DNA of 24,000 nucleotides from Algihabitans sp. (GCA_965233705.1 CBDDTF010000003.1:1662997-1686996), one strand, 5' to 3'. Positions 1,560 through 17,248 are shown, counted from the first letter of the stretch. Program-made: numbers and translations. The notes: generated from the sequence alone by a model not told the origin.

Positions 1560-2285
1560 TCATTGGGCAAGCCATCTTCCATATGCCTGAATATCGATCA
1601 TGGGAACGGTCCCGCTGAATTGAAGCTGAGAAATCAGATTGAAAAGAAATGCCGTTGCAGGCTTGCCGCCATCCTCGAAGACGTAATCGTTGCTCTGCTC
1701 GTCAAACCGGAAAAGCCCATGAGCTGCCACACACCCCATGTTCAACTTGCCATCGCCTCCATCCGCAGCCAGCGCACTTCGCAGCGCCTCGCCTAAGGGC
1801 GGATTCCAATCACTCTCGAACGTGAGGATGCCGCCGAGGATCGGGATTAGGGGCTTTGGGTCGTAGACACCACCTGCATGGGGGATAGGAAGGCTGGTTC
1901 GATGCAGCCGTCGGACGCTTGCCGCCTTTTCCTGGGCGTATTTGACGTAGTCGCCGTTTATGGATTGTTTGGCCTCGAAGACCGCGTAGACGCTTTCCGC
2001 CGGTATCACCTTTTCACCTTCAAAATTGAATATGAAAGGCGAGTACTGACGGTCAAAAATCACAACATCTATCTGCTGACTGAAGGTGCCCTGACTGTCA
2101 ACGACGTGCGCCTTTTCAGCTTGGTAGCGGGCAGGTAGGTAGTCCTGAAAGAGCTTCAGCCAAATCTTCTCACTTGCATCCCCCTTCGTTCCGGGGTGGC
2201 CAAAGCTCTGCCGTGCCGTTTGCAGACGGCTTTGTATGTCCTGATGGAGGCTTTCCAGGACCTTGGCTAGCGACCATGTGGTCAC
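1560..2285 (-). CDS. nucC: NucC-like CBASS effector endonuclease (restriction-endonuclease fold)
   Basis: 241 aa with a PD-(D/E)xK-type signature I-D73-x30-E104-A-K106 (QQIDVVIFD...VYAVFEAKQ). It is the last gene of the CD-NTase/HORMA/TRIP13 operon. Its GTG start overlaps the upstream stop (GTGA). Confidence 0.8.
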   Translation of the reverse strand: MTTWSLAKVLESLHQDIQSRLQTARQSFGHPGTKGDASEKIWLKLFQDYLPARYQAEKAHVVDSQGTFSQQIDVVIFDRQYSPFIFNFEGEKVIPAESVYAVFEAKQSINGDYVKYAQEKAASVRRLHRTSLPIPHAGGVYDPKPLIPILGGILTFESDWNPPLGEALRSALAADGGDGKLNMGCVAAHGLFRFDEQSNDYVFEDGGKPATAFLFNLISQLQFSGTVPMIDIQAYGRWLAQ

Positions 2286-3223
2286 GACACGCCCTCCCGA
2301 AACGGCGGAGTCGGTTCCATCCCTCGGGCAATCTCGATTGCCCGCTTCGGATCGATCGGTTTGTTTGGATACGCATCCAGGACGAGCGTCGGCAGCAACC
2401 GTTGCGTAAGGTCGGAGAATGTAAAGCCGTATGCACGACCATTCATCTGGCCAGTGGCGGCAACCAGTTGATTCAGGTCTGGCTGCGAGAAGCCAAGCTC
2501 ACCCAGAGAGCGCTGAAGCACTGACAGGCGTTGCACTTCATTGGGGCGACTAAAGGCCATGATGTCGGCCGCGCGCCGCTTGACTGCGGGGTCCATTGCC
2601 CCGAGGCGGTTAGAGCACATGATGATGGCAGCAGGCACGCGTGCGTTGGCGATCGTGTCAATTCCGCGGATGAATGCGTTAACGCCCGCGCGATCTTCAT
2701 GGTGCATCTGCGCGGCCTCACGGGACTGAGCCAGCGCATCTGCTTCGTCCACCAAAAGAATTAGCCCGCCACGGGCCTTGCCCGTACTGCCTTTTAGCTT
2801 CATGGCCTGGGACAGCGTGTAATCGAAGGCGGCCGAGAGAAGTTGTGTCATTTCGCCAACACGACCCTGCCCTCTACTTGACAGGCTCAGCGGCAACAAG
2901 GTGATGTCAATGTCTTCTTGCCGTGCGACAGCATCACCGATCGTTTCAGCAAGTTCGGTTTTCCCCGACCCCACGTCGCCGGCGAGCACGACAAGAGGCG
3001 GGCGCCTCAGGACTGTATCCATAATGACAGTCCGTCCAGCGTGATGCTTCCGCGCCCATGCCTCCAATCCGGCGGGGTTTACGAGCAGCCCAAGGGCCTT
3101 CGTCAGGCGCGTTTTGTGATCGTCCAAGCCGACAAGCTGAGCCAGACGCTCCCGAGCGGAAACATCAGGATAGCTGATGCGCCGGTCGAACAACTCATCG
3201 ACGTTGACGGTACTGTTCATCAC
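2282..3223 (-). CDS. cap6: TRIP13/Pch2-like AAA+ ATPase (CBASS Cap6)
   Basis: Walker A LAGDVGSGKTE and Walker B LILLVDEADAL. About 313 aa, located between the HORMA-size gene and the nuclease. The start (GTG 3223 or ATG 3220) overlaps the upstream stop. Confidence 0.85.
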   Translation of the reverse strand: MMNSTVNVDELFDRRISYPDVSARERLAQLVGLDDHKTRLTKALGLLVNPAGLEAWARKHHAGRTVIMDTVLRRPPLVVLAGDVGSGKTELAETIGDAVARQEDIDITLLPLSLSSRGQGRVGEMTQLLSAAFDYTLSQAMKLKGSTGKARGGLILLVDEADALAQSREAAQMHHEDRAGVNAFIRGIDTIANARVPAAIIMCSNRLGAMDPAVKRRAADIMAFSRPNEVQRLSVLQRSLGELGFSQPDLNQLVAATGQMNGRAYGFTFSDLTQRLLPTLVLDAYPNKPIDPKRAIEIARGMEPTPPFREGVS

Positions 3224-3735
3224 CAGCTCCTCACGGTAGCCCGGTCGAGGGCTCTGCCGCCCGCCGAATAGGTCTTATCGGAAACCAGATATCCATTGAT
3301 GCCCGGTTCCGGTGCGCCGTTTCGTTGAAGAGGCAAGGTTCGTTTGAAGGCCTCCCGTTCGTCGGAAGTCAGCGCATCCCATGCGGCGCTATAGGTGAGA
3401 TAGCTGTAGAACGAGGCGCCGGAAGTATCGGCATTGGGGGAGACACGGCCGGGATCATCATCATTGGCCGCCATACCCGCCAAATCCTTCGCAGTGTACC
3501 GGACCGTGGGGGCAATCCAGTCGCCATTGCGGCGAAAGCCGTAAGTGACGGTTCCCAGATACCCTGCTTTCAACAGGTCTATGACCTCGGCTTCGTACTC
3601 GGCGATGTCGGCATCGCTCGGTGCGCCATAGAAGCGCTGCATCCGCTTCAGGTCGGCCGCCACCTTCGCCGCCATGTGTCTGGCGTGCGTAACGGTGAAG
3701 GTCGTGGTTTCGGAGATGGTGTAGCTATAGCTCAT
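3220..3735 (-). CDS. cap7: Bacterial HORMA-domain protein (CBASS Cap7), assigned by size and position
   Basis: 171 aa, sandwiched between the CD-NTase and the TRIP13-like ATPase exactly as in type III CBASS. I can read no catalytic motifs. The assignment is contextual, not from a recognised sequence signature. Confidence 0.65.
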   Translation of the reverse strand: MSYSYTISETTTFTVTHARHMAAKVAADLKRMQRFYGAPSDADIAEYEAEVIDLLKAGYLGTVTYGFRRNGDWIAPTVRYTAKDLAGMAANDDDPGRVSPNADTSGASFYSYLTYSAAWDALTSDEREAFKRTLPLQRNGAPEPGINGYLVSDKTYSAGGRALDRATVRSW

Positions 3736-3743
3736 GGCTGCTC

Positions 3744-4709
3744 TCAGACCTGAAAAGACGGACCGAACACTTTCTGCCAGTAGCGGACGGTCTCTTGTTT
3801 GGTGGGTGCCGCAAGCGCCGCATCGATCGCATCGCCGGCGTCCAGCGCCGCCTCAAAAATCGCTTCCGCTTGGGCTTGGGTGTAGAGCCGGCTGACGTTG
3901 TTGTCGGCGTTCACCGGATCGATGATCTGTACGGGCTCTGTGAAGGTTCCGACTGCTGACTGAGGATAATAGTCGTTGAAGATTATTCGCTCCCGCAGGC
4001 CGGTCTGGCCGAGGTAGGTGAAGAAGTGCTGCAACGCCTCCGGGTAATCGGAAAAATCCAACCCCTCGTCCGCCAGGTGGGACAGAATCATTTCGACCAT
4101 GAAGGATTTGAAGCGGAAGCCATCATTCTCACGCTTCATATTCCTCGCCCAGAACTTCACAAGACGGACAACTTGGGCGAAATGGGTTTCCTGTGCCTGC
4201 TTGCGCTTGCGGGTGAATTCGAGGTGCAGGGGGATGCTGGTCTTGAGAAACGATCCGTCGTCCTGACTGACCAGGTTCCCGAACCACTGTGGGTCGCCAT
4301 CGTAGAGGATGGGAACGACATCTACGTCCAGTCCCGAGCCGCGAAACGAGACGGTCACACTGTAGGTCTGCGGCTTCACCTGATCGGGGCTGAAGTTGGG
4401 AAACGCCTTGCGAAGCCGCTCCGCGAGGTACTCCAACAGCGCAGCGATATCGGCGGGCGCGTCGGCGCCGCTGATGTAGCAGCCCACATCGATGTCGTTG
4501 AGGGAACGCAGCGCAGTGCCCTTCGCCAAGCTGCCCGAGAGGAGCATCTTCTTGAGGGTGAAATCCGGATGCTCGCTCAGATAGCCTTCCAGGCGCTCGC
4601 GCAGACGGCGGGCCTGGGCACGGTACTCGTCGGCCTTGTCCTTGGGCAGATTCACCCGCTCCTGCGCAAAGCGAGCGATGTCACTATGGTCTACATGTTG
4701 CCGTCCCAC
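3744..4709 (-). CDS. cdnC: cGAS/DncV-like nucleotidyltransferase (CD-NTase), CdnC-like by operon type
   Basis: Pol-beta NTase signature G59-S60 (LLSGSLAKGT), D72-x-D74 (NDIDVG) and a third acidic cluster GLDVDVVP. The GTG start at 4709 is preceded by GGAGG 7 nt upstream. It is the first gene of the four-gene operon. Confidence 0.85.
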   Translation of the reverse strand: MGRQHVDHSDIARFAQERVNLPKDKADEYRAQARRLRERLEGYLSEHPDFTLKKMLLSGSLAKGTALRSLNDIDVGCYISGADAPADIAALLEYLAERLRKAFPNFSPDQVKPQTYSVTVSFRGSGLDVDVVPILYDGDPQWFGNLVSQDDGSFLKTSIPLHLEFTRKRKQAQETHFAQVVRLVKFWARNMKRENDGFRFKSFMVEMILSHLADEGLDFSDYPEALQHFFTYLGQTGLRERIIFNDYYPQSAVGTFTEPVQIIDPVNADNNVSRLYTQAQAEAIFEAALDAGDAIDAALAAPTKQETVRYWQKVFGPSFQV

Positions 4710-4889: not shown

Positions 4890-6128
4890 ATGGACCCGGT
4901 TGAGCTTGGACGCCGCTTGCGCATTGCTCGTGAGGCACGGGGCCTGAGCCAGCAGGCCGCGGCGGACGCCATTGGCGTGCCCCGGACGGCGATTACCCAG
5001 ATGGAATCGGGGAATCGCGCTGTCTCGACTCTGGAGCTGACCAAGCTCGCAGAGCTTTACCGCCGCCCGGTGACCTATTTCTTTGAGGAAGCCGCTCCGG
5101 CGGAAGAAGAGGATGTGCTGGTCGCGCTACATCGCGTTGCCCCGGGTCTGGAGCAGGATTCGGCAGTCCGTGATCAGGTGGATCGTTGCCTGAGCCTATG
5201 CCGTGACGGTGTCGTCCTGGAAACCGTACTGGGGCTCGCACCCCGGTCCGGCCCTCCGGCGTACGAGCTGCGCGTTCCTCGTACCGTCGGCGAAGCTATC
5301 GTTCAAGGAGAGCAGGTGGCGCAGGAGGAAAGGCGCCGCCTCAGCATTGGCAATGCCCCGATCCCTGACGTATCGGAGCTGATTGGCGCGCAGGGTATTT
5401 GGGCATCCGGCCTTGCGCTCCCAAATCACATGTCCGGCCTTTTTATGCGCCACCCTTCGATTGGGTTGGCAATCATTGTAAACGCGTCCCACCCGCGTGG
5501 GCGAAAGAGGTTTTCATACGCTCATGAATATGCCCACTCTCTCATGGATCGTGACCACAATATAACGATTTCAAGTACCGATAATTCTGCGGAACTTGTG
5601 GAGAAGCGTGCGAATGCTTTTGCGGCATCTTTCCTCATGCCGAGAGACGGCGTGTATGAGGTTCTGAGAAGTCTCGACAAGGGGCTTCCAAGCCGTCAGG
5701 AGCAATCGATCTTTGATGCTGCCAGCGGTGGGCAAATTGAAGCTGAAGCTCGTTCGGCACCTCGCTCTCAGCGCATTACCTACAAAGATGTAGCGATCGT
5801 AGCGCATCATTTCGGTGTGAGCTATCAGGCCGCCCTCTACAGACTGAAAAGCCTCAAGCATGTTTCTCAGCCGGAATCCGTTGAGCTCCTGGAGCATGAG
5901 GATTTCGGCCGACAGTATCTCAATGCACTGAGCATGTTCGGTGATGTTGGAGAGCAAGAGCAGCGGCAATACTGGGATCGTGAGCTGCGCAGTGAAATTG
6001 CGCACCTTGCGATTGAAGCCTATCGGCGCGAGGAAATTTCCCGCGGGCGCCTACTGGAGCTTAGCAAGAGCCTCGACATTCCGGGAGAAACCCTCCTTGA
6101 ACTAGCCGAAGTGGCCCGCGGGGAGTGA
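4890..6128 (+). CDS. Fused XRE-family HTH + ImmA/IrrE (COG2856) zinc metallopeptidase
   Basis: The N-terminus LGRRLRIAREARGLSQQAAADAIGVPRTAITQMESGNRAVSTLELTKLAELY is a classic Cro/C1 HTH. HEYAH (aa 212-216, nt 5523-5537) in SYAHEYAHSLMD, followed by ANAFAASFLMP, is the ImmA/IrrE signature. Strong SD: AGGAGGAGG. Confidence 0.85.
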   Translation: MDPVELGRRLRIAREARGLSQQAAADAIGVPRTAITQMESGNRAVSTLELTKLAELYRRPVTYFFEEAAPAEEEDVLVALHRVAPGLEQDSAVRDQVDRCLSLCRDGVVLETVLGLAPRSGPPAYELRVPRTVGEAIVQGEQVAQEERRRLSIGNAPIPDVSELIGAQGIWASGLALPNHMSGLFMRHPSIGLAIIVNASHPRGRKRFSYAHEYAHSLMDRDHNITISSTDNSAELVEKRANAFAASFLMPRDGVYEVLRSLDKGLPSRQEQSIFDAASGGQIEAEARSAPRSQRITYKDVAIVAHHFGVSYQAALYRLKSLKHVSQPESVELLEHEDFGRQYLNALSMFGDVGEQEQRQYWDRELRSEIAHLAIEAYRREEISRGRLLELSKSLDIPGETLLELAEVARGE

Positions 6129-6137
6129 ACCAAAGGC

Positions 6138-6656
6138 ATGATCCGTGCGAGCCCGTCAATCATCGTTTCGGATACGTCCGTTCTTGTGAACTTTCTCCGA
6201 ATCAACCGCATGGACCTCATCGCTGGCTACTCTCATGACTTCATCGTTACGGATCACGTCGCCGCGGAAATCACCGACCATTACCCTGACCAACAAGCAC
6301 GCTTTGCCGCGGCCCAGGCAGCAGGAATGCTCCAACAGGTGAGTATCACAGATCCGGCGGAAGTCGCGTTGTTTGGAAGTCTCGCCGCTTCCGGTCGTCT
6401 GGGTGCGGGCGAATGTTCCGCGATTGCACTTGCCTCACACCAAGGGCACATCCTGGCGATCGATGACCGCCGCGCATCAAACCATGCGCGCCGTGTCAGC
6501 CGGCATCTCCAGATTCTGACAACCCAGGACCTGATGGTTTCTATGATCGGTGAAAACCTGTTGGACGTGCCGCAAGCTGATACCATCAAGGACGAATGGG
6601 CGAGCAATCATCGTTTCCGCCTTACAATTCAAAGCTTTGCGGACCTCGTCTCGTGA
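6138..6656 (+). CDS. PIN-domain (DUF3368-like) nuclease
   Basis: It has the N-terminal IIVSDTS acidic motif, then GAGECSAIALA and LAIDDRRA, the usual PIN acidic quartet arrangement. It starts 9 nt after the HTH-peptidase stop. Confidence 0.7.
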   Translation: MIRASPSIIVSDTSVLVNFLRINRMDLIAGYSHDFIVTDHVAAEITDHYPDQQARFAAAQAAGMLQQVSITDPAEVALFGSLAASGRLGAGECSAIALASHQGHILAIDDRRASNHARRVSRHLQILTTQDLMVSMIGENLLDVPQADTIKDEWASNHRFRLTIQSFADLVS

Positions 6657-6744
6657 AGGATGCTCAATATCTTCCCCGGGACAGTGTGCATGGAAAAATA
6701 GGGGCCGTCGAAACGACACAAGCACGGATGACGCCGAGGCAGGT

Positions 6745-9741
6745 TTAGGTTCCCGCTTCTTCCCGCACCTCCCGCAGCGCCCGATTGAAGAAGTGGCGGA
6801 TCGCTTGCTCGCGGGCTTGCGGATCGCTCAGCACGATGTTCTTCATCTCGTTGTCGCGCTGGAACATCTTGATGGCGCCCTTGAAGAACGCCTGACTGAA
6901 GGCGGAGAAGACCACGTCCGGCGGGTTGTTCCGCAGCATTTCTGTCAGGTCTTCGTCCATGATCTCGCGGTTGACCTGCTCGAAGCGGATAAAGTCCTCG
7001 CGCGAGAACTCCGTGCCGTGGCGGTCATTGAACGCCTTGATGATCTCGGAGAGCGAACGCTCTTCCTCTTCTGTGTAGGGCTTAGCGGCGAATTCGCTGA
7101 TGGGCTTGAGCTCTTCTGTGTCGCCGGCCGCAAGTGATGCTGACCCCTGCTCCTTCTGCTCGACACGAAACGCCTGAAGGCGGAGCATCTCCTCGGTAAT
7201 CTCGACATCGGGCGGTATTTCCCGGTTCGGCAGCAACCGCGACAGCCAGGCGGCGTAGGAATAGAGCTTTTCAAGCCCGGTATCGCCAAGCCGGATGACC
7301 TGCGCCACGAAACTGTAGAAGCGCATGTAGCTCTTCACCAGTTGGCGGAACTCTTCCTGCCGCCCCTCGTCATCCTCGGCCTCGAAACGGGCCACGGCCT
7401 GCCGTACCAGCCCTTCTAATCGGGCGCGGTCATGGGTGTCGAGCGCACCCTTGTAGAAGGTCTCGGCGAAGCGATCGATTTCGCCCTGGTCGAGGATGCC
7501 GAAGGTTTTGAGGCGTGCTTCCAACTCGTAAATCTGGTTGGGGTCGGAGTTTGCCTCCAGCCCTGTCACCTCAAAGAACGGCTTGAAGGCGTTCTGGATA
7601 TCCTCTGTGGTGTTCTGGAAGTCGAGGACGTAGGTGCGATCCTTGCCCGGATAGGTACGATTGAGGCGCGAGAGCGTCTGAACGGCCTGAAGGCCGGCGA
7701 GCTTCCGGTCCACATACATCGCGCACAGCTTCGGCTGGTCGAAGCCCGTCTGGTACTTCTCGGCGACAATCAGCACCTGATAGGCATCCGAATCGAAGCG
7801 GCGCGGAAGCTCGGTCTCGGCGAAGCCGTTCAGTTCGGCTTCAGTGTACGTTTGCCCGTCCACCTCCAGGTCGCCCGAAAACGCGACCAGCGGCTTCACA
7901 TCGGTGTAGCCATTGGCCTTGATGTAGTCGCGAACGCCAAAGTAGTAGCGAAGCGCATGCTCGCGGCTGCCTGTGACAATCATAGCCTTGGCGCGGCCGT
8001 CCAACTCGTCCATCACATGGCGGCGGAAGTGCTCGACGATCACTTCAACCTTCTGGCCGATGGCGGTCGGATGGAGGGAGGCGAAGCGTGCCACGCGACG
8101 CTGGGCGCGGCGGGTGTTCAGCTCGGGGTCGTCCTCGATGGCCTTTTCGAGCTGGTAGTAGGCTTTGTAGGTCATGTAATTCTGGAGCACGTCCAGAATG
8201 AAGCCTTCCTCGATGGCCTGGCGCATCGAGTAGAGGTGGAAAGGCTGCGGCAGCCCGTCCGCCCCCTTCGTCCCGAACCGCTCCAGCGTCACGTTGCGAG
8301 GCGTTGCGGTGAAGGCGAAATAGCTGATGTTCGGCTGCGGCCCGCGGGCTTTCTGATAGTCGGCAATCAGATCCTCGATATCGCGGCCGTCCTCGGTCTC
8401 GTCGCGCGTCAGCGCATCGCTCATGGCCTGCGCGCTCTTGCCGGACTGACTGCCATGGGCCTCGTCGATGATGACGGCAAAGGTGCGGGTCCCCTGGCCG
8501 GACAACTCCTTCAGGTGGTCGGTCGAGAACTTCTGGATGGTGGTGATGACGATGCGTGCACCGGCCTCCAGAGCCGCCTTCAACTGGCGCGAGGTGCCGT
8601 CGATTTTCTTCACCACGCCCTTGGTCTGCTCGAACTGCGCCACCGTGTTCTGGAGCTGGCGGTCGAGCACAACGCGGTCGGTAACGATGACGGCCGAATC
8701 GAAGATCGGCCTGTCGGCATCGTCATGCAGATTGGTGATCTGATGCGCCGTCCAGCCAATGGTATTGGACTTGCCGGAGCCAGCCGAGTGCTGGATCAGG
8801 TAGTTATGGCCTGGGCCGAAGCCGCGGGCGTGCATCATCAGCTTGCGCACCGCGTCGAGCTGTTGGAAGCGCGGGAAGATCAAGGTCTCCCGAACTTCGG
8901 TCGAACCGCTTGCCGTCGGCGTCTCCTGCCGCTCCAGATGGAGGAAGCGTCCGATGACGTCGAGCAACACGTCCCGCGACAACACTGCCTTGCCTTCGGG
9001 CTGGTCGGCATAGAGGTAGGCCACACGGAAGTCGCCGGCGACGTCGGGATTTCCGGCGCCGCCGTCCCGCCCGCGATTGAACGGCAGAAACCGTGTCTTG
9101 CCGTTCTGGAGGCGCGTCGTCATCGAGATATTGTCCTCGTCCATCGCGAAATGGACGAGCGCCCCGCGCTTGAAGGTCAGGAGAGGCTCACCGGCCGGAG
9201 AACGGTCGTAACGGTACTGCTTCTCGGCGTGCCGGAAGGTAGAGCCGGTCAGGAGGTTCTTCAGCTCCGCCGTTGCCACCGGCAGGCCGTTGACAAACAA
9301 CGCCACGTCAATGGCGTTCTCCGAGCGCTGACTGTAGCGGAGCTGACGGATGATTGAGAGGATGTTGGCCTCATAGAGCCGAACCAACTCGGCGTTCAAC
9401 CCGGACGCGGGCTTGAAGAAGCAAAGCGTCAGCTTGATGTTGGGGATGAGCTTCAGCCCCTGCCGCAGTACGTCGAGCGTGCCGCGCGTCTTCAGCGCCT
9501 TCTCAAGCTGCTTGAAAAATTCGGCTTCGGCGGCGGTGGTGTACTGCGCCTCCAGCTTCCGCCACTCGTCAGGTTGCGTCTCCTTGACGAAGCGAAGGAC
9601 AAGCCCGCGGTCCATGGCAAGGGCGCGGTCATACTCGTCCGGCTGTCGGGCGACATAGCCCTGTGAGGCCATCAGATGGTCCACCATGTGCTGTTCAAGC
9701 ACGATCTCTTGGTGCGCGTTCTGGGCGGCGTGCTTTGTCAT
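6745..9741 (-). CDS. hsdR: Type I restriction enzyme R subunit (helicase-nuclease)
   Basis: 998 aa with Walker A HSAGSGKSNT and a DEAH box (IIDEAHGSQSG). It is the last gene of the hsdM-hsdS operon, with an ATGA overlap with the upstream gene. Confidence 0.93.
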   Translation of the reverse strand: MTKHAAQNAHQEIVLEQHMVDHLMASQGYVARQPDEYDRALAMDRGLVLRFVKETQPDEWRKLEAQYTTAAEAEFFKQLEKALKTRGTLDVLRQGLKLIPNIKLTLCFFKPASGLNAELVRLYEANILSIIRQLRYSQRSENAIDVALFVNGLPVATAELKNLLTGSTFRHAEKQYRYDRSPAGEPLLTFKRGALVHFAMDEDNISMTTRLQNGKTRFLPFNRGRDGGAGNPDVAGDFRVAYLYADQPEGKAVLSRDVLLDVIGRFLHLERQETPTASGSTEVRETLIFPRFQQLDAVRKLMMHARGFGPGHNYLIQHSAGSGKSNTIGWTAHQITNLHDDADRPIFDSAVIVTDRVVLDRQLQNTVAQFEQTKGVVKKIDGTSRQLKAALEAGARIVITTIQKFSTDHLKELSGQGTRTFAVIIDEAHGSQSGKSAQAMSDALTRDETEDGRDIEDLIADYQKARGPQPNISYFAFTATPRNVTLERFGTKGADGLPQPFHLYSMRQAIEEGFILDVLQNYMTYKAYYQLEKAIEDDPELNTRRAQRRVARFASLHPTAIGQKVEVIVEHFRRHVMDELDGRAKAMIVTGSREHALRYYFGVRDYIKANGYTDVKPLVAFSGDLEVDGQTYTEAELNGFAETELPRRFDSDAYQVLIVAEKYQTGFDQPKLCAMYVDRKLAGLQAVQTLSRLNRTYPGKDRTYVLDFQNTTEDIQNAFKPFFEVTGLEANSDPNQIYELEARLKTFGILDQGEIDRFAETFYKGALDTHDRARLEGLVRQAVARFEAEDDEGRQEEFRQLVKSYMRFYSFVAQVIRLGDTGLEKLYSYAAWLSRLLPNREIPPDVEITEEMLRLQAFRVEQKEQGSASLAAGDTEELKPISEFAAKPYTEEEERSLSEIIKAFNDRHGTEFSREDFIRFEQVNREIMDEDLTEMLRNNPPDVVFSAFSQAFFKGAIKMFQRDNEMKNIVLSDPQAREQAIRHFFNRALREVREEAGT

Positions 9742-10322
9742 CTGGCGGATTTCCCTTCTCCGCAGGCGACAGCGGCGATTACGCCGACCAGTGCCGTCAC
9801 GAGAGCCGACATAGCCGATTGAAGGTGGTGCAGATTGACGTGATACTCGCCGTCAATCGGCCGATCGGTTTTGGCGCCACGATCATAAGTCAGGTTGTAG
9901 CGAAAGGCCGTGGAGTTGGGGTCGATGGCGCCCAGCTCCCTCATTCTGTCGATGATCCAGTCAGGCACGTCTGCGTCGAATTCTGACCTTATGAAGGTTT
10001 GATACTCTTGCGACAAAGCATCGAGATTATGCGTCTTTGCGGCGTCCCGCATAATCGCCTTCAGAAATAACTCGATAGAATGTCGATAGAGATAGAGCAC
10101 AGGGTTTGCGACTTCATAATCCGCCACCTGTTGATGCTTTATGGCCTCGACAAGCGCGCTAGCTGCATTGAAGTATTGTTGGCCAAGGCGCTGAAAGCGC
10201 TGGTTCGCTCCACCACCTACAAGGAAGCCTAATGGCTCGGACCATTCGTCGGGCCGCTCGATTGCTGCCGTTGGGTCCTCAAACAAGGGCCGATGCATCT
10301 GCTCTGCGGTGAAAACACTCAT
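9738..10322 (-). CDS. Hypothetical 194-aa protein with a hydrophobic C-terminal tail, embedded in the type I R-M operon
   Basis: The start is set at ATG 10322 (MSVFTAEQ...), which overlaps the Mrr-like stop (ATGA); its own stop overlaps the hsdR start (ATGA). It has no recognisable catalytic motif. The C-terminus AMSALVTALVGVIAAVACG is a roughly 19-residue hydrophobic stretch. Confidence 0.6.
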   Translation of the reverse strand: MSVFTAEQMHRPLFEDPTAAIERPDEWSEPLGFLVGGGANQRFQRLGQQYFNAASALVEAIKHQQVADYEVANPVLYLYRHSIELFLKAIMRDAAKTHNLDALSQEYQTFIRSEFDADVPDWIIDRMRELGAIDPNSTAFRYNLTYDRGAKTDRPIDGEYHVNLHHLQSAMSALVTALVGVIAAVACGEGKSAR

Positions 10323-11362
10323 GCGTCGCCCCCCGATATCGGCGCCCAAATCTGTTTGAGGGGCAGCTTGGCGCGGGTCTCGTCGGACAGTTCGCCATAG
10401 GCGCGGAACAACGCCTTCAACAGGTCCGGCATCTGCCAGAGGCGCAACTTGAAGAAGTTGTTGTCCAGTTCCTTCTGCGCTGCCGCGTTCACACCGCCGA
10501 TGCTGACCAGAAGACCGGTTCGCGCTTGTGTGTTCGACACCGAACCGATCAGCCGCAGCACAACGTCATGATTGGCCGCCCCATCGCCGGACTTCACCTG
10601 CACGCAGATGCGATCCTCGCCAAGGCCGAGTGTGCCGCCGGCCGCGAGGATGTCCACGCCACCGTCGGCGCCAGGCGGCGATACCTTGGTTGTGTAACCC
10701 TCCACGCGCAGAATTTCGGCCACTAGGTCGGCCAGGGCATGACCGGCGAACTCGGACTTGATCAGCGAAATGATCTGCTGGTTGGCGATATCCTCGATAT
10801 CGGTGGCGTAGTCCTCCGCCTCCACGTCCTCGTCGGGAGCTGGTGCCGATGCCTTGCCCTGCTTGCCGAGAAGGGAGCCGGGGTCACTGCCAGTCTTCAG
10901 GACAGCGCGGACCCGCTCCAGCGCCGAATTGCGCTTGATCTCGCAGATGGTCATGAACGCGCCGAAGGAATGCCGTAGGTCCTGCTTGAAGGCGTCGCGC
11001 GCAACGGACTCTTCCAGCCACTTCACCGCGCGGGAATGGCGATAAGGGTCGTTGGGATCGAAAGCGTATTCCCCCGTTACCTCGCCGATGGCGACGCCGT
11101 TCGTCACCTTCCGCGGCATAACCACAAGGTCGCCGACCTGGATGGTATGGGCAAACTGGTTTAGCTGGGCGGCAAAATTCTTCAGCCGGTTCTGTCCCGC
11201 GTCGGGCATTACCTGTTCAAGATGGACGAGAATGGCGTCTCGGCCCTTGAGCGCGCCCAAGTCGCCAACTTCGAGGAAGCCGGGCAGAAGCCTACCCTGC
11301 TCGATGGCAGCCAGCTCGCGCTCGCCCTGCTTGCCAGCCCGAACAATCCATAAGCGGCTCAT
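10319..11362 (-). CDS. Mrr-family (type IV-like) restriction endonuclease with an uncharacterised N-terminal domain
   Basis: The C-terminal half PPGADGGVDILAAGGTLGLGEDRICVQVKSG matches the Mrr catalytic core (GDGGIDG...VQAKR in E. coli Mrr). The N-terminal ~160 aa (MSRLWIVRAGKQGE...) is not the winged-helix Mrr_N. ATGA overlaps at both ends. Confidence 0.8.
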   Translation of the reverse strand: MSRLWIVRAGKQGERELAAIEQGRLLPGFLEVGDLGALKGRDAILVHLEQVMPDAGQNRLKNFAAQLNQFAHTIQVGDLVVMPRKVTNGVAIGEVTGEYAFDPNDPYRHSRAVKWLEESVARDAFKQDLRHSFGAFMTICEIKRNSALERVRAVLKTGSDPGSLLGKQGKASAPAPDEDVEAEDYATDIEDIANQQIISLIKSEFAGHALADLVAEILRVEGYTTKVSPPGADGGVDILAAGGTLGLGEDRICVQVKSGDGAANHDVVLRLIGSVSNTQARTGLLVSIGGVNAAAQKELDNNFFKLRLWQMPDLLKALFRAYGELSDETRAKLPLKQIWAPISGGDA

Positions 11363-12603
11363 GACGCCATCTCCCGCTGGATGGCGTCCAGTCGCCTGTC
11401 AGGCTCACCCCGCTTGCCCCAGGTAGCGACGTCGATCTGGCCAGTGACGGCAGCGGTGATCAGGGCGGCGCGGAACTCCTGGAGGCGCTCAATTGAGGCG
11501 GCAACCTTGTCGAATACGGGTTCTCTCGCAGCTTGTGCGGCTTGAAATCGCGTTAAAAGATCGAACTGAACCTGCCTATCAGGAACCCAAAGCCGGTAGT
11601 TTCCGAGAGTTTCGCGATTGATCTTGGGCATCGCGACACGCATGGACTCAAGCGTCGCCCAATCGGTGAACTTCCGCGAAAGCAATTGCACTAGCAGGAA
11701 CTCTGGCAAAAGGCGCTTGTCCGGCAGGATGGGGTACATGTCGGCGCTGCACATGCCGGATTGTGGTGCTATGCATGCCTTTGCCAGCGCAGGACGAATC
11801 TTGCTGTAGAGGACCGTGCCGGCGGGGTAGGCGTACTTGCCGCTGATCGCTCCCTGTTCTTCGGCGGTCTCGACCTGCAATAGGCGTCCCGTAGCAGATT
11901 GAATGTGGTTGGGTGCAATCAATGGCTGATTGGTCCAGCGTGGATCGGTGGGATCAACCTGACCCTCCGCGATGCGGCAGACCCACCGGAAGGGGATCAT
12001 CTCCTCGAAGATCATTTCGGCCGGAGTGGTCGCCTCTTCGCGCAGGGCCGCAAGCCCCTCCGCCAGAACCTCCAGCAAACGTTGCTTTTTCTCGATCAGC
12101 CGATCGATGCGGGCGGTCTCGCGGTCGAGGAAATCCGCGATGGCTTTTTGGGTGGGAAGGTCCGGAAGCGGAATTCGCTCTGCGCGTAACCTGTCACGCG
12201 AAAGCTCTATGAAGGTCGTACCTTGGCCGGCAGCCTCTAGCTTTGGCTTAATGGCAGACAAAGCCCAATATGCAAAATCAGAGCGAGCCATTGGCCGAGG
12301 CACCAAACCACGACACCCTTGGTTGAAGCACATGGGCCGTGAAGCAACGGCGATATGACCAATCGGAGCACGGATCGAAAGAATGATGGACCCGGCTGGC
12401 ACCATCTGAGTGCCACAGCTCGAATATCCCTCACGCGTTATACTGCGTTCGCCACAATCTATAGAGCGCGTCTTCAGTTTGCCCAGATCAGCAGGGCCGA
12501 CCCATGGTATGTCTCCGTCCCAGTAGGCCGGTTCGGCGGAAGCAGGGGTTGCCCCGTTCCGAACATCGAAAGCTGCACCGATAGGGACTCCTTGAAAGGT
12601 CAC
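11359..12603 (-). CDS. hsdS: Type I R-M specificity subunit
   Basis: 414 aa with two TRD-like halves separated by the conserved coiled spacer (...QKAIADFLDRETARIDRLIEKKQRLLEVL...). The C-terminal helix is RLQEFRAALITAAVTGQIDV. GTGA overlap with hsdM. Confidence 0.88.
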   Translation of the reverse strand: MTFQGVPIGAAFDVRNGATPASAEPAYWDGDIPWVGPADLGKLKTRSIDCGERSITREGYSSCGTQMVPAGSIILSIRAPIGHIAVASRPMCFNQGCRGLVPRPMARSDFAYWALSAIKPKLEAAGQGTTFIELSRDRLRAERIPLPDLPTQKAIADFLDRETARIDRLIEKKQRLLEVLAEGLAALREEATTPAEMIFEEMIPFRWVCRIAEGQVDPTDPRWTNQPLIAPNHIQSATGRLLQVETAEEQGAISGKYAYPAGTVLYSKIRPALAKACIAPQSGMCSADMYPILPDKRLLPEFLLVQLLSRKFTDWATLESMRVAMPKINRETLGNYRLWVPDRQVQFDLLTRFQAAQAAREPVFDKVAASIERLQEFRAALITAAVTGQIDVATWGKRGEPDRRLDAIQREMAS

Positions 12604-14627
12604 GCCGTCACCTCCTTCAGAAGCCCTGCAATCTCGGCCTCCAGAGCCTTCAGCTCGGCGTCTATCTGCTCCAGCGGGCGCGGCGGGACATAGCGGTAGA
12701 AGTAGCGGTTGAAGTTGATCTCGTAACCGACGCGTCCCACCTCGCCGTCGCGGGCATCGCGGTAGCTCTCGTCCACCCAGGCATCGGGTACGAAGGGTTT
12801 GACCTCGCGCGCAACGTAGTCCCGCCAGTCCTCCTTGAGCGGCACCAGCTCGTGGTCGCGCAGGTCGGTGTCCGGCTCGGGGTTTCCATCCTTGTCGGTG
12901 CAGATGTCGGCCTCTTCGTCTCGCTCCGACAAGGCAGAAAGAATAGCTTTGCGGACAGGCGCCGCAATCTTGAGCCCAGCGCTCTTCAGCGCCTTGGTCA
13001 ACGCCTTGTCGAAGGCGTCACGATTGGTGAACAGCGTGCTCGGCAAGCGAGAGAACAGCCCGTCAAGGATGTCGGCCTGCTCACCGGCGTCGAGCTTGCC
13101 GAACGCCTTCTCCGCCTTCAGGCGCTCGATGCGCTCCGCCGTGGCCTGGAAGTTCAGCCGCAAGGGCCGTTCGACGCGGATTTCCCGATAGCCGAAGTCA
13201 GTGGTGTCGAAGATCTTGGAGAACTCGCCGTACTCACCGTTACCGTTCAACATTTCGGCATAGATGCGGACGATTTCCTTGCGCGCTCCCTCGGGGATTT
13301 CCCGGCGCTTGGAGCCGAGCGACTTGCGCATGGATTTCCAGAACCGCTCGCCGCTGGCGTCAATGAGCTGCACCTTGCCGCGTCGCGCCTTCGGCTTGCG
13401 ATTGGTCAGTAGCCATACATAGGTCTGAATGCCGGTGTTGTAGAACAGGTCGGTGGGCAGGGCGACGATGGCCTCGACGAGGTCCTTCTCCAGCATCCAG
13501 CGGCGAATTTCGCTTTCGCCCGAGCTCGCGCCGCCGGTGAACAGCGGCGAGCCGTTCATGACGATGCCGATGCGCGAACCGGTTTCGTCGTCGCGCATCT
13601 TGGCGATCATATGCTGGAGGAACAGCAACTGCCCGTCGGAAATCCGCGGCAAGCCGGCGCCGAAGCGACCGTCGAAGCCCAGCGTCTCGGCCTCTTCCTT
13701 GATCGGGTCCTGGTACTTCTTCCAATCAACGCCATAGGGCGGATTGGAGAGCATGTAGTGGAAGGATTTGCCCTTGTGGGCGTCGTTCGTCAGCGTGTTG
13801 CCGAAGGCGATTTGCTCGGGGTCGTGGCCGGTGACGAGCATGTCGGATTTGCAGATGCCGAAGGACTCCCCGTTCAGCTCCTGCCCGAACAGCTCGACGC
13901 GGATGGAGGGGTTGAAGTCCTTCAGCGCTTCCTCGGTCAGCGCCAGCATGCCGCCGGTGCCGCAGGCCGGGTCATACACCTGGCGGATGATACCCTTGCC
14001 GGTCAGCTTGGTGTCGTCGTTGGCGATCAGCAGTTCGACGATGAGGCGGATGACCTCGCGCGGGGTGAAATGCTCACCGGCCGTCTCGTTGGAGATTTCC
14101 GAGAACCGGCGGATCAGGTCCTCGAACAGATAGCCCATCTCGATGTTGCTCACCCGGTCAGGGTGCAGGTCGATCTGGGTGAAGCGGTCGAACACCTGCC
14201 AGAGGATGCCGCCTTCGTTCAGGCGCTTGAGCTGGTCGGTGAACAGGAATTTGTCGAGAAAGATATCGCGGACGTTGCCGGAAAACTTGGTGATGTAGTC
14301 GATCAGGTTGGCATGGAGCTGGCCGGGGTCCTGCGCCTTCAGGCTTTTGAAGGTGAAGGCGCTGAGGTTGTAGACCTTGATGTTGCTGCCGGCCGCGCCG
14401 AACAGAATCATGTCGCGGGTTTCGTCGTCAACGCCGTCCGGCAGGCCCTTGGCGGCGTCGAGCACGTCCGCCTTCGATGCCTCAAGGATGCAATCGAGGC
14501 GTCGGAGCACGATGAAGGGAAGGATGACCTTGCCATATTCGGATTGCTTGAAGTCGCCGCGCAGGATTTCCGCGATCGACCAGACGAAGCCTCCGAGGCT
14601 TTGAACCTTGGCGTTTGCCCCTGACAC
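12600..14627 (-). CDS. hsdM: Type I R-M N6-adenine DNA methyltransferase subunit
   Basis: NPPYG motif IV (MLSNPPYGVDW), SAM motif I (VYDPACGTGGML) and an HsdM_N-like LRGDFKQSEYGKVILPFIVLRRLD. The start is set at GTG 14627 (SD GGAGGGG upstream), not at the 777-aa ORF start, which would run through the upstream HTH gene. Confidence 0.9.
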   Translation of the reverse strand: MSGANAKVQSLGGFVWSIAEILRGDFKQSEYGKVILPFIVLRRLDCILEASKADVLDAAKGLPDGVDDETRDMILFGAAGSNIKVYNLSAFTFKSLKAQDPGQLHANLIDYITKFSGNVRDIFLDKFLFTDQLKRLNEGGILWQVFDRFTQIDLHPDRVSNIEMGYLFEDLIRRFSEISNETAGEHFTPREVIRLIVELLIANDDTKLTGKGIIRQVYDPACGTGGMLALTEEALKDFNPSIRVELFGQELNGESFGICKSDMLVTGHDPEQIAFGNTLTNDAHKGKSFHYMLSNPPYGVDWKKYQDPIKEEAETLGFDGRFGAGLPRISDGQLLFLQHMIAKMRDDETGSRIGIVMNGSPLFTGGASSGESEIRRWMLEKDLVEAIVALPTDLFYNTGIQTYVWLLTNRKPKARRGKVQLIDASGERFWKSMRKSLGSKRREIPEGARKEIVRIYAEMLNGNGEYGEFSKIFDTTDFGYREIRVERPLRLNFQATAERIERLKAEKAFGKLDAGEQADILDGLFSRLPSTLFTNRDAFDKALTKALKSAGLKIAAPVRKAILSALSERDEEADICTDKDGNPEPDTDLRDHELVPLKEDWRDYVAREVKPFVPDAWVDESYRDARDGEVGRVGYEINFNRYFYRYVPPRPLEQIDAELKALEAEIAGLLKEVTA

Positions 14628-14821
14628 TATTCCCCTCCCCGTTTCTTCGCTTCCGCCGACTGCTGCTCGATCCACTTGTCGATCTCGCCGCGCCGGAACC
14701 GCCAGGCCCCGCCGACCTTGAAGCCGGGAATCTTTCGCTCGGCCGCGAGGCGATAAGCCGTCTTCTCGGTGAGCTTGAGATATCCAGCCACCTCCCGGAT
14801 CGTCATGATGTCGGTGTCCAT
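14627..14821 (-). CDS. Small excisionase-family HTH protein translationally coupled to hsdM
   Basis: MDTDIMTIREVAGYLKLTEKTAYRLAAERKIPGFKVGGAWRFRRGEIDKWI is the HTH_17 pattern. Its TAG stop shares one nucleotide with the hsdM GTG start (TAGTG). Confidence 0.7.
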   Translation of the reverse strand: MDTDIMTIREVAGYLKLTEKTAYRLAAERKIPGFKVGGAWRFRRGEIDKWIEQQSAEAKKRGGE

Positions 14822-14904
14822 ACGGCTCCCCGCCGGAACATCCAGCCCGTATTGAGAAAATACGGGAAGAAATGGGAAATGCCAAGCGGAAGACCGCCAT
14901 GGTC

Positions 14905-15477
14905 CTATTCCGCTTGCCCGCCCCGTCGTGCACACGGAAGGTGGCGGTACAGCGTTGAAACCGACACGCCTACGCGCTGAGCAACCTCAGCGACAGTGAT
15001 CTCTGGATTGCGGAGAAGCTGTCGAGCGTCGCGAATACCCTCCTTCGACAATCCAGGCGGCCGGCCGCCCTTGCGGCCTCGGGCGCGAGCGGCTTCAAGC
15101 CCGGCCGTTGTCCTTTCGCGGATCATGGCGCGCTCGAACTCCGCCAGGGCGCTGAAAACATGGAACACGAGCATGCCGCCGGCGGTCTTCGTGTCGATCA
15201 TCTCGGTCAGAGAGCGGAAGCCCATGCCCTTCGACTGGAGAAGCTGCACCGTGTCGATGAGCTGGCGCATCGACCGGGCCAGGCGGTCGAGTTTCCAGAC
15301 GACAAGCGCGTCGCCAGGTCGCATGTAGTCCAGCGCCTTGAGAAGCTCAGGCCGGTCACGCTGCGCACCGGAAGCAGTCTCGGTGAAGATGCGTTCACAT
15401 CCGGCCGCCTCAAGGGCGTCGGTTTGAAGCGTCAGATTTTGTTCGGCTGTCGAAACTCGGGCGTAACCAATATTCAC
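14905..15477 (-). CDS. Serine recombinase (resolvase/invertase family)
   Basis: (V)NIGYARVSTAEQNLTLQTDAL carries the catalytic Ser motif, followed by VVWKLDRLARS and a C-terminal HTH (ITVAEVAQRVGVSVSTLYRHL). The start is set at GTG 15477. The longer 218-aa ORF would read through the luxI-operon terminator hairpin. Confidence 0.88.
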   Translation of the reverse strand: MNIGYARVSTAEQNLTLQTDALEAAGCERIFTETASGAQRDRPELLKALDYMRPGDALVVWKLDRLARSMRQLIDTVQLLQSKGMGFRSLTEMIDTKTAGGMLVFHVFSALAEFERAMIRERTTAGLEAARARGRKGGRPPGLSKEGIRDARQLLRNPEITVAEVAQRVGVSVSTLYRHLPCARRGGQAE

Positions 15478-15545
15478 TCTCTCGAAAATCCATAAATTTA
15501 ACACGGACAGTGTATCAGATTTCGACGCACAGTTTTGAGAAATAC

Positions 15546-15574
15546 AGAAGGGCGGAAACACGTTCCGCCCTTCT
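15546..15574 (-). terminator. Rho-independent terminator of the luxI-orf61 transcript
   Basis: AGAAGGGCGGAA-cgtgt-TTCCGCCCTTCT is a perfect 12-bp stem, followed on the minus strand by GTATTTCT. It lies 16 nt after the orf61 stop. Confidence 0.8.
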
Positions 15575-15590
15575 CAGAACAGCCGCCCTG

Positions 15591-15776
15591 TCAGTATCGG
15601 TCGTTTTTGCGAGGTGGTTTCACCGCATCCAATGCCGCCGCCGTCTCATCAAAACCGGCACGCCGTGCTTCATCCGCGAGATAGCGGATGCACCACGCAA
15701 GCCTGTCGGCTTCGGTGCGGGAAGGTTGCTCGCTGCCATACGGCGCAGACGCGGGCCATTCGGTATCGTGCATCAT
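15591..15776 (-). CDS. Hypothetical 61-aa protein translationally coupled to the AHL synthase
   Basis: ATGA overlap with the luxI-family stop, GC-rich third codon positions, and a terminator directly downstream. No recognisable domain. Confidence 0.5.
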   Translation of the reverse strand: MMHDTEWPASAPYGSEQPSRTEADRLAWCIRYLADEARRAGFDETAAALDAVKPPRKNDRY

Positions 15777-16450
15777 GCCGCAACCCTTTCCGTGCGAAGC
15801 TCATCAAGGTTGGCGATGACGGAACCCGTTGCGCCGGCGCGAGCGCGGACACGCGCGAGGTAGGCAGGCGATACCTCCAGCCACTCGGCCGCCGCCGTGT
15901 CGGTGCCGGTCTCCATCGTTCCGCCCAAGCGGACGGGGTTCCATCCGGCTCGGCGCATGATCGGCTCCATGCGGATGTCCGACACGGACACATAGGCACG
16001 CAAGCCAGCGTACTGGCCGAACTCCAACATGCCGGCCATGAGGATGGCCGCGATGTTGCCCGGAGCCGTGGTTTGGTCGGCACAGAAGCGGGTGCTCTCC
16101 CAGATGTCATGCGTGCGCGGCATGTCGGCGTCTACCAGCTCGGGGAATACGTCGGCCAGGAGATACGGGCCTGTCGTCGGCAAGAGCCGGGTGCAGGCGT
16201 TCACGCGGCCGTCCGGCGCGTAGTGAACCAGATAGTGCGCCTCGGGCAGGTCGAACTGGTCGAGCTCCAGCCCGTTGACGACGGTGACATCCCAGCCAAG
16301 CCGCTCCCTGAAGACACTCCGGCGGAGCTGGTGCATGGACGCGAGCGCATCCCAATGCAGGTGCGCGTTCTCTTTCGATATGATGTGAAGCAATGGCTTC
16401 CCTCCCAATTTGTTTGGGAGCATTGAGCCAGAGAACGAAGCGCCTGCCAT
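15773..16450 (-). CDS. LuxI-family acyl-homoserine-lactone synthase
   Basis: MHQLRRSVFRERLGWDV...ELDQFD...RLLPTTGPYLLADVFPEL...IWESTRFC is the canonical autoinducer-synthase block. The start is uncertain: ATG 16450 has GGAGG 8 nt upstream, ATG 16423 fits family length better, and the ORF track starts at GTG 16465. Confidence 0.9.
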   Translation of the reverse strand: MAGASFSGSMLPNKLGGKPLLHIISKENAHLHWDALASMHQLRRSVFRERLGWDVTVVNGLELDQFDLPEAHYLVHYAPDGRVNACTRLLPTTGPYLLADVFPELVDADMPRTHDIWESTRFCADQTTAPGNIAAILMAGMLEFGQYAGLRAYVSVSDIRMEPIMRRAGWNPVRLGGTMETGTDTAAAEWLEVSPAYLARVRARAGATGSVIANLDELRTERVAA

Positions 16451-16467
16451 CCTGTCAACCTCCACAG
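16451..16467 (-). promoter_or_regulatory. lux-box-like palindrome CTGTGGAGGTTGACAGG (copy 1)
   Basis: CTG-N10-CAG architecture, with an exact 17-mer copy at 18288-18304. It lies immediately upstream of, and overlaps the SD of, the luxI-family gene. Confidence 0.45.
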
Positions 16468-16489
16468 GTTACTGGCAAGTAAAGCGCAT

Positions 16490-17248
16490 TCAGGGCGCGA
16501 TGATGCCTTCCATGATCGCCTTCATCACGGCGTGATAGACGTTCGCCACGCCCATCTTGGAGCGGACGTTCGCCAAGTGAAAATAGACCGTGCGCTCGGA
16601 TATCCCGAGTATCTGAGCGGTCTGCCAGGCCGATTTCCCGGCGGCGGTCCAGAGCAGGCACTCGCGCTCGCGCGGCGTCAGGCTGACGGTGGTGCGCCCC
16701 ATGCGGCCAAGCGCGAGCAACTCGCGAGCGTGATTGTGGAAGGCGAGCGACAACAGGTGCACGTCCTGCCCCACCGTGGACATGAGCCGGTCGAGCCCCT
16801 CGGCGCCATGATCGGAAACCATGGACGCCATCGCGAGCGCGCCGCGCGCGCCGTGGATCGGGATACCGACGCCCTCACCAACTCCGAACTCGGCCGCCTC
16901 CGCGAAAAGGCGTCGTTGTTCCGGTGAGGGATCGATGCCGAAGGACATCTCGCTCCATGTGAAAGGGGCCACCTGGCTCGGTCCTTTCAGGATGACCGGA
17001 TCGACGCGATGATAGTCGTTGTCGATGTAGTGGTTGTACCAGGCATCGGAGAAAGTGGTGAGGATGAGCGGCTTCTCGTCCGGCAGCGCATCGGCGTGGA
17101 TGACCTGATAGGCCCACTCTCGAAAGCCGAGATCCCAGAGCGCTTTCGAGAACGCAGCTTCGAGCGACGCCACGTCTTCAACGTGGCGTATCTGGTCAAG
17201 GAAAGCGATGACAGTCGGCCGGATGCGTGACCCCTCCTCGCATGGCAT
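16490..17248 (-). CDS. LuxR-family AHL-responsive transcriptional regulator
   Basis: It has an N-terminal autoinducer-binding-like domain (WAYQVIH...DPV...W...) and a C-terminal LuxR HTH: LTPRERECLLWTAAGKSAWQTAQILGISERTVYFHLANVRSKMGV. Confidence 0.88.
   Translation of the reverse strand: MPCEEGSRIRPTVIAFLDQIRHVEDVASLEAAFSKALWDLGFREWAYQVIHADALPDEKPLILTTFSDAWYNHYIDNDYHRVDPVILKGPSQVAPFTWSEMSFGIDPSPEQRRLFAEAAEFGVGEGVGIPIHGARGALAMASMVSDHGAEGLDRLMSTVGQDVHLLSLAFHNHARELLALGRMGRTTVSLTPRERECLLWTAAGKSAWQTAQILGISERTVYFHLANVRSKMGVANVYHAVMKAIMEGIIAP

Follow-up and report, generated by a model that had tools for sequence, protein, structure and literature searches.

Two independently distributed cargo genes between hsdS and hsdR in a type I restriction-modification operon of Algihabitans sp.

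The stretch of Algihabitans sp. DNA analyzed here is 24,000 nucleotides (nt) long (GCA_965233705.1, CBDDTF010000003.1:1662997-1686996); we call the whole of it the window, and all coordinates count from its first letter. It contains a type I restriction-modification (R-M) operon in which two additional genes, one for an Mrr-like protein (10319-11362) and one for a protein of 194 amino acids (aa) named ORF194 (9738-10322), lie between hsdS and hsdR. The six open reading frames (ORFs) are arranged head to tail on the minus strand in the order HTH (helix-turn-helix), hsdM, hsdS, Mrr-like, ORF194, and hsdR (14821-6745); this structure, given in an initial annotation made from the DNA alone, was borne out by Pfam, PADLOC and NCBIfam. 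The Mrr-like gene and ORF194 are independent modules that are stacked in this operon. Our reading of the locus, to which we give a probability of roughly 0.7, is that the type I operon resides on a conjugative or mobilisable element and that its hsdS-hsdR interval acts as a cargo slot for self-contained defence genes, filled here by two unrelated cassettes.

The distribution of the two genes among related loci carries this reading. ORF194 was surveyed in 62 loci from GTDB species genomes, and the Mrr-like gene in 80 loci from metagenome contigs with identities from 88 to 40%. About 20 of the ORF194 loci are within type I operons of the same family, and the Mrr-like gene is also present in only four of them (L003, from Dongia, L006, L010, and L016). 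In the 80 Mrr-like loci, neither phmmer nor a family hidden Markov model found a single ORF194 homologue. We also asked whether the small genes found in place of ORF194 in L071 and L076, or the one between hsdM and hsdS in L093, might be divergent relatives of it; they are unrelated. Genes of the hsd type occur in 28 of the 55 informative Mrr-like loci and are directly adjacent to the Mrr-like gene in 19; its position, moreover, varies, being between hsdS and hsdR (e.g., L065, L072), between hsdM and hsdS (e.g., L092, L095, L097), after hsdR, before hsdM, or away from hsd genes. The initial annotation had proposed that the two genes form a functional unit and had named beforehand a co-occurrence survey as a test that could refute it. 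These counts do not uphold the unit and agree with half of that refuting outcome: the pair is not conserved, whereas the linkage of each gene to hsd genes is strong. Nor was constant nesting between hsdS and hsdR found, a point which that annotation had put forward for checking, for both genes also occur at other positions or outside hsd operons.

The content of the slot differs among relatives as well. ORF194 is the only gene between hsdS and hsdR in twelve loci (L004, L005, L011, L013, L017, L019, L022, L025, L032, and L034-L036), a TIR gene precedes it in L021 and L023, and TIR, Mrr-like and ORF194 genes follow each other in L016; the arrangement hsdS-Mrr-hsdR is also seen among close relatives with the same HsdM/HsdR backbone. 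The TIR protein encoded in the slot (L016, 5187-5972; L021, 9252-9989; L023) is of the CAP12/Pycsar type and matches PADLOC PDC-S35 (E 5e-100), its gene lying 5' of either the Mrr-like gene or ORF194. On plasmid pPABY8 of Salipiger abyssi (L145, 2036-8065), the slot contains an Mrr-like gene, a gene for a 174-aa canonical HEPN protein (RNAVAH), and an ORF194 homologue, with an AbiJ-like gene after hsdR and a HigA-like gene before hsdM. In a tree of HsdR proteins, nearly all members of the clade with at least 68% identity to the HsdR of the window have ORF194, and the presence of the Mrr-like gene is patchy. The HsdM and HsdR proteins of L016 are 80-84% identical to those of the window, but its ORF194 is only 46% identical and resembles that of another lineage (73-76% identity); the discordance of this allele with HsdM and HsdR indicates that the variable interval has been exchanged independently of the hsd backbone. 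It is because of this allele exchange, the varied slot content and the separate distribution that we regard the two genes as independent modules.

The composite module of the initial annotation, a single two-gene system in which ORF194 would restrain the nuclease or be triggered by it, agrees with the adjacency and ATGA overlap of the two genes in the window, in Dongia (L001/L003), in L006/L010, and in near-identical metagenome contigs, and with the frequent location of distant ORF194 relatives after a nuclease-type gene (Shedu, PIN_12). However, it is contradicted by the gene distribution. Besides the lack of ORF194 from all 80 Mrr-like loci, mrr is followed directly by hsdR in L065 and L078, relatives at 88% and 92% identity, and the Mrr-like gene is absent from most hsd-embedded ORF194 loci; in L016, 54 nt separate the Mrr-like gene from an ORF194 that is a different allele, and in pPABY8 another gene stands between them. 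We thus consider a two-gene system very improbable.

All five junctions of the operon are start/stop overlaps, and direct reading of the minus strand confirmed each of them where it had been annotated. At the HTH/hsdM junction, the stop codon TAG (14629-14627) and the GTG start codon (14627-14625) have one base in common (TAGTG, 14629-14625). The hsdM/hsdS junction is GTGA (12603-12600), and those of hsdS/Mrr-like (11362-11359), Mrr-like/ORF194 (10322-10319) and ORF194/hsdR (9741-9738) are ATGA. A purine-rich, Shine-Dalgarno-like run is located 7-14 nt 5' of each start codon, within the preceding gene, and the six genes are probably coupled in translation through the NTGA/TAGTG overlaps. The GTG starts taken for hsdM and hsdS are the most upstream candidates and are putative; family profiles align from residue 5-6 onward, and automatic gene callers on near-identical contigs picked later starts for hsdS.

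The overlaps had been taken to mean that the extra genes were not a later loose insertion. This claim could not be maintained, since relatives with the same HsdM/HsdR backbone differ in slot content and the overlaps are formed again with other neighbours: 4-nt NTGA overlaps were counted at 73 of the 96 same-strand junctions of related loci, by a start-picking rule biased toward an overlap where possible and against a chance estimate of ~15-20%. They occur whichever genes adjoin, the pairs including hsdS>ORF194, hsdS>Mrr, Mrr>ORF194, Mrr>hsdR, hsdM>Mrr, and Mrr>hsdS, so that an overlap is no argument against insertion. The NTGA overlap is the default junction style in this operon family and is restored upon gain, loss, or swap of cargo. 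Frequent turnover of cargo is thus in keeping with the overlaps, which support co-translation of the genes.

The first cargo gene (10319-11362, minus strand) codes for a 347-aa protein made of an N-terminal DUF8426 domain, a linker, and an Mrr_cat domain. Given its >1,277 homologues, the ORF is a real gene. Its product matches PADLOC PDC-S02 (PDLC04815) over its full length (E 6.4e-132, residues 2-340 of 347), and its Mrr-family identity, already recognized in the initial annotation, was confirmed by Mrr_cat at residues 204-317 (Pfam E 1.5e-19, 70.7 bits). This PD-(D/E)xK nuclease core (10412-10753, minus strand) presents the motif D237...Q255-V-K257, and E216, E221, D233, D237, Q255 and K257 are invariant across 30 homologues. 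The same annotation had correctly noted that the N-terminal ~160 aa are not the usual Mrr_N: Pfam found no Mrr_N, and hence no winged helix of the EcoKMrr type, in the protein, and the precomputed domains of its homologues are PF28530 (DUF8426) and PF04471 (Mrr_cat). The N-terminal alpha/beta domain (aa 1-160; 10883-11362, minus strand) has R8, G13, Q66, D78, P83, Y99, H109, W115, R122, T138, C140 and A147 as family invariants. In the AlphaFold (AF2) model of the protein, it is predicted with pLDDT 80-96, the nuclease domain being poor. The best Foldseek matches of the domain, all weak, were the YTH domain of YTHDF1 (prob 0.99, E 0.027), MspJI (E 0.038) and YTHDC1 (prob 0.91); they are suggestive of a PUA/YTH-like reader of modified bases, for which DUF8426 is then a candidate.

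Two-domain modification-dependent nucleases with a PUA-like reader of modified bases are already known (PMC6765204; PMC12707154). As in MspJI (SRA plus Mrr-like), EcoKMrr (winged helix plus Mrr_cat) and the PUA/EVE-HNH enzymes, a putative reader domain at the N-terminus precedes the nuclease in the protein of the window, which has a C-terminal Mrr_cat with D...QxK; unlike in those enzymes, the N-domain is DUF8426 and not Mrr_N, SRA, or EVE by sequence, and dependence on modification is a prediction. The protein may thus join a modified-base reader to an intact Mrr-type PD-(D/E)xK nuclease, and most likely it would be a modification-dependent nuclease of type IV, directed at phage DNA whose modification shields it from classical restriction. 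The initial annotation saw a puzzle in the presence of such an enzyme next to an N6-methyladenine (m6A) methyltransferase. In Escherichia coli K-12, mrr adjoins hsdRMS in the immigration control region. The puzzle appears to be weak, since EcoKMrr responds to 6mA and 5mC in particular contexts only (PMC12707154), and the pairing of an Mrr-type enzyme with a type I m6A methyltransferase is for that reason no paradox.

The second cargo gene, ORF194 (9738-10322, minus strand), had no match in Pfam, PADLOC, NCBIfam, or PHROGs. Nevertheless, it is a real gene of a large family: the 90% database yielded 142 homologues and the 50% identity library 2,797 clusters (E <= 1e-3), of which the best 150 consist almost entirely of stand-alone proteins of ~160-210 aa. 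The AF2 model (pLDDT 93.3) consists mostly of helices with a small hairpin. Its best match in the Protein Data Bank (PDB) by Foldseek was the HEPN protein AF_0298 (2hsb; prob 0.95, TMt 0.60, E 0.27), and the HEPN toxins 7bxo, 7ae6 and 7ae8 came next. Pfam HEPN (PF05168) matches 7 of 46 close and 18 of 67 diverse family members, with a best E of 7.4e-5 and mostly below the 22-bit cut-off. The residues R80, E84, K88, H98, D134 and R141 are invariant in the family, and we take them to fit the classical PF05168 signatures, that is, the ExxLK helix, "THxL" and "FRY". From these data, ORF194 is probably a divergent HEPN-like protein. The stretch R92-x5-H98 of the window protein was examined as an Rx4-6H motif and rejected, as R92 is not conserved in the family. 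Searches of PDB sequences with the ORF194 profiles A1 and A3 gave nothing meaningful. A viral fold search in BFVD and a search of PHROGs returned no phage relative of ORF194, and an anti-restriction or phage-derived origin is on that account unsupported.

Relatives of ORF194 are also found outside type I operons. In six loci (L014, L015, L020, L024, L026, L153), they lie in their own orientation between an integrase gene and a convergent DISARM/Dpd-like block, which encodes an HNH protein, a DUF2326/LmuB-like ATPase, a 1,600-aa methylase of DrmMI/Eco57I type, and an SNF2 helicase of DrmD/DpdE type. Others are located downstream of genes for a Shedu nuclease, a PIN_12 protein or a DUF2235 protein, or near Pycsar, SIR2 and Tn7 TnsD genes. 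In L154/L155 (6001-8923), the order is of the EcoEI type, Fic-hsdR-hsdM-hsdS, and ORF194 comes after hsdS, far from hsdR. In these two loci, ORF194 is followed by genes for two unannotated proteins (447 and 323 aa) with 4-nt overlaps. These contexts support the view that ORF194 belongs to defence islands as an autonomous gene, with a preference for restriction-type neighbours, and they argue against a dedicated HsdR subunit.

Several points weigh against the cargo-slot reading. Genes in the surveyed loci were called by a simple ORF heuristic. In one HsdR clade, ORF194 is nearly fixed at the position preceding hsdR, which could point to a function dedicated to HsdR. The YTH/PUA-like assignment of the N-domain comes only from weak Foldseek matches (E 0.027-0.08), and profile searches of Pfam and the PDB gave it no support: a Pfam scan of 43 diverse N-domains returned no EVE, YTH, ASCH, or PUA match, and when the Mrr-like protein and the N-domain profile A4 were compared with PDB sequences, the only matches were antibody or haemagglutinin noise. 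In addition, the one PDC-S02 representative assayed failed to protect against T4, T5, or T7 in plaque assays (PMC12881386). Finally, the ORF194 family has no conserved Rx4-6H; R141 is invariant, with no conserved His at +5 to +7, which makes RNase activity doubtful and, in our estimate, rather unlikely.

The last two points would also be expected if one or both cargo genes were inactive passengers, decaying or non-functional, and the Mrr-like protein also scores 28.3 bits with the "inactive REase" family NA-iREase1. Mrr_cat is, however, far above that match, at 70.7 bits; both proteins belong to widely conserved families, are full length, and keep invariant polar residues (D237/Q255/K257 in the Mrr-like protein; R80/E84/K88/H98/D134/R141 in ORF194), and the reading frames and overlaps of both genes are intact. 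Loss of function of the cargo is, therefore, scarcely credible.

The near-fixation upstream of hsdR deserves more weight. ORF194 could be a dedicated type I accessory or regulator, either controlling the assembly or activity of HsdR or acting as a PrrC-like guard that HsdMSR keeps latent and that fires when a phage anti-restriction protein inhibits the complex; cross-talk of this kind with HsdMSR would be presumed. In almost all of the clade at least 68% identical to the HsdR of the window, it directly precedes hsdR and overlaps it by ATGA, and across pairs of loci, ORF194 identity rises with HsdR identity (r = 0.87); this correlation is nonetheless below that of HsdM and HsdR (0.99), and linkage alone predicts it. 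An extra gene between hsdS and hsdR is classical from PrrC (PMC12707154), and Anantharaman et al. 2013 (PMC3710099) linked at least 16 HEPN clades to R-M systems and put forward a PrrC-like guard model. Against a dedicated role stand the allele of L016, which is discordant with its HsdR, the absence of ORF194 from the close HsdR relatives L065, L072 and L078, and the family members that stand alone beside DISARM/Dpd-like, Shedu, PIN_12, SIR2 or Tn7 genes or after hsdS in an EcoEI-type R-M-S operon. The precedent of the prr locus, invoked in the initial annotation, holds in part. The position of the PrrC anticodon nuclease gene in prr (EcoprrI) is the same as that of the cargo in the window, which makes a fair analogy, and the nuclease domain of PrrC belongs to the HEPN superfamily, as ORF194 may on weak evidence. 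The domain make-up does not agree: PrrC, of ~400 aa, combines an ABC-type NTPase domain with a HEPN domain that has the catalytic Rx4-6H, whereas ORF194 is a single domain of 194 aa with no NTPase match and no conserved Rx4-6H, and the combination of ABC-type NTPase and HEPN anticodon nuclease typical of PrrC and RloC was not found in it by Pfam, PADLOC, or NCBIfam. On balance, we judge a dedicated role of ORF194 unlikely, and we retain the reading of a cargo slot for self-contained genes.

Within the cargo-slot reading, ORF194 would most likely add a further layer of defence as an RNA-targeting or nucleotide-binding effector, or as a sensor, as has been proposed for R-M-linked HEPN genes. Like the R-M-linked HEPN families and PF05168, it is predicted to be a four-helix HEPN-like bundle in an R-M neighbourhood; unlike classical PF05168 members, it matches at or below the Pfam threshold, has no MNT partner present, and does not conserve the catalytic His. 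A bolder proposal, which we regard as speculative and improbable, is that ORF194 would be the founding member of a class, so far unrecognised, of minimal HEPN-like proteins associated with defence (~190 aa, ~2,800 clusters at 50% identity, neither NTPase nor Rx4-6H) that ride with type I and DISARM/Dpd-like systems and serve as a guard or second-line effector once the DNA-targeting layer is blocked. If this were true, the class would represent PrrC-like logic in a much simpler protein with different chemistry.

Much of what the operon displays has been described. Genes embedded in type I R-M, BREX and DISARM systems are enriched for defence functions, and the PDC families were defined by this "guilt-by-embedding" (Payne et al. 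2024, 10.1101/2024.01.29.577857). The Mrr-like gene is therefore not part of a new module, as had been suggested, but is already catalogued as PDC-S02, a candidate derived from R-M/BREX/DISARM embedding, with which it shares the full-length match and the embedding in a type I system and from which it shows no structural difference. In enteropathogenic Escherichia coli (EPEC), the island RptR-hsdM-hsdS-DarTG2-hsdR, published in 2025, is a regulator-first type I operon with an embedded DarTG2, and a role as recombination hotspot has been suggested for the hsdS-hsdR site (PMC12255303). The operon of the window likewise begins with a small DNA-binding protein and bears a defence cassette between hsdS and hsdR; the regulators (RptR vs HTH_17/MAD1-like) and the cargo differ. 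Embedded type I R-M genes, R-M-linked HEPN genes and PDC-S02 being known, the fresh lead is the unannotated ORF194 family only, which is large, conserved and associated with defence islands and would be a reasonable addition to defence catalogues. The locus does not overturn current understanding. It provides a well-sampled case of an hsdS-hsdR plug-in slot in which a PDC-S02 nuclease, a PDC-S35 TIR protein, HEPN proteins and ORF194 are swapped with the overlaps left intact, and it is useful for the discovery of defence genes and for learning how operon junctions get rebuilt.

The remaining genes of the operon define the R-M system itself. The hsdM gene (12600-14627, minus strand) codes for the type I m6A methyltransferase subunit of 675 aa, with HsdM_N and N6_Mtase domains and a full-length match to PADLOC MTase_I (PDLC03029, E 5.8e-274). 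The specificity subunit HsdS (11359-12603, minus strand; 414 aa) has two target-recognition domains, seen as two Methylase_S stretches, and matches PADLOC Specificity_I (E 6e-58). HsdR (6745-9741, minus strand; 998 aa), the restriction and translocase subunit, contains HSDR_N, SWI2_SNF2/ResIII and T1R_D3 and matches PADLOC REase_I. With the expected domains and a matching PADLOC model for each subunit, the operon is, by its sequence, a type I R-M system, predicted to have restriction and m6A methylation activity. The first gene (14627-14821, minus strand) encodes a 64-aa HTH_17/excisionase-family DNA-binding protein (Pfam HTH_17, E 6e-17; NCBIfam TIGR01764 excise), whose probable role is that of the operon regulator. 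This protein scores 81.3 bits against NCBIfam antiphage_MADS1 (MAD1), the cut-off being 80. The label of a methylation-associated defence system (MADS) was rejected, as no other mad genes are present and HsdM and HsdS fit type I models far better than mad2 and mad5. The occurrence of a MAD1-like HTH protein in a plain type I locus suggests that such proteins are front-end regulators shared by methyltransferase-based systems.

Transcription of all six genes probably starts at a single promoter, located 5' of the HTH gene. A simple scan of 6400-15700 yielded one sigma-70-like site, a number not above the expectation from shuffled sequences, at 14885-14857 on the minus strand (TTGGCA, 17-nt spacer, TATTTT), 5' of the HTH gene; it is a promoter candidate. 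A terminator-like hairpin matching the consensus (6704-6717, minus strand) lies 28 nt past the hsdR stop codon, the count of such hairpins again not being above that in shuffles.

The window is a defence-rich part of a conjugative or mobilisable element, near-identical copies of which occur in other metagenomes, and the R-M operon is a layered defence on it. Domain searches identified a tyrosine integrase (161-1147), a serine resolvase immediately 5' of the R-M operon (14905-15561), a type IV coupling protein (T4CP; 18514-20109), and a MobA/VirD2 relaxase (21848-23545). On the minus strand at 1560-4709, four genes form a CBASS-like operon that looks like type III CBASS; it consists of a SMODS cyclase (3744-4709), a bacterial HORMA protein (3220-3735), an AAA ATPase that is possibly Trip13-like (2282-3223), and a DUF6602 protein as a possible effector (1560-2285). 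Between the CBASS and R-M operons, on the plus strand (4890-6656), a 412-aa HTH_3 and Peptidase_M78 fusion is followed by a 172-aa PIN/DUF3368 protein. The two could represent either a regulator pair resembling CapH/CapP or a toxin-antitoxin module, and the same arrangement is found in L150, a near-identical JGI contig. Genes for a LuxI-type autoinducer synthase and a LuxR-type regulator (15773-17248, minus strand) adjoin the resolvase, so that the element combines a quorum-sensing pair with its defence genes. A gene for a 411-aa protein with a SIR2_2 domain (20531-21766, minus strand) lies between those for the coupling protein and the relaxase, and it may be yet another defence gene.

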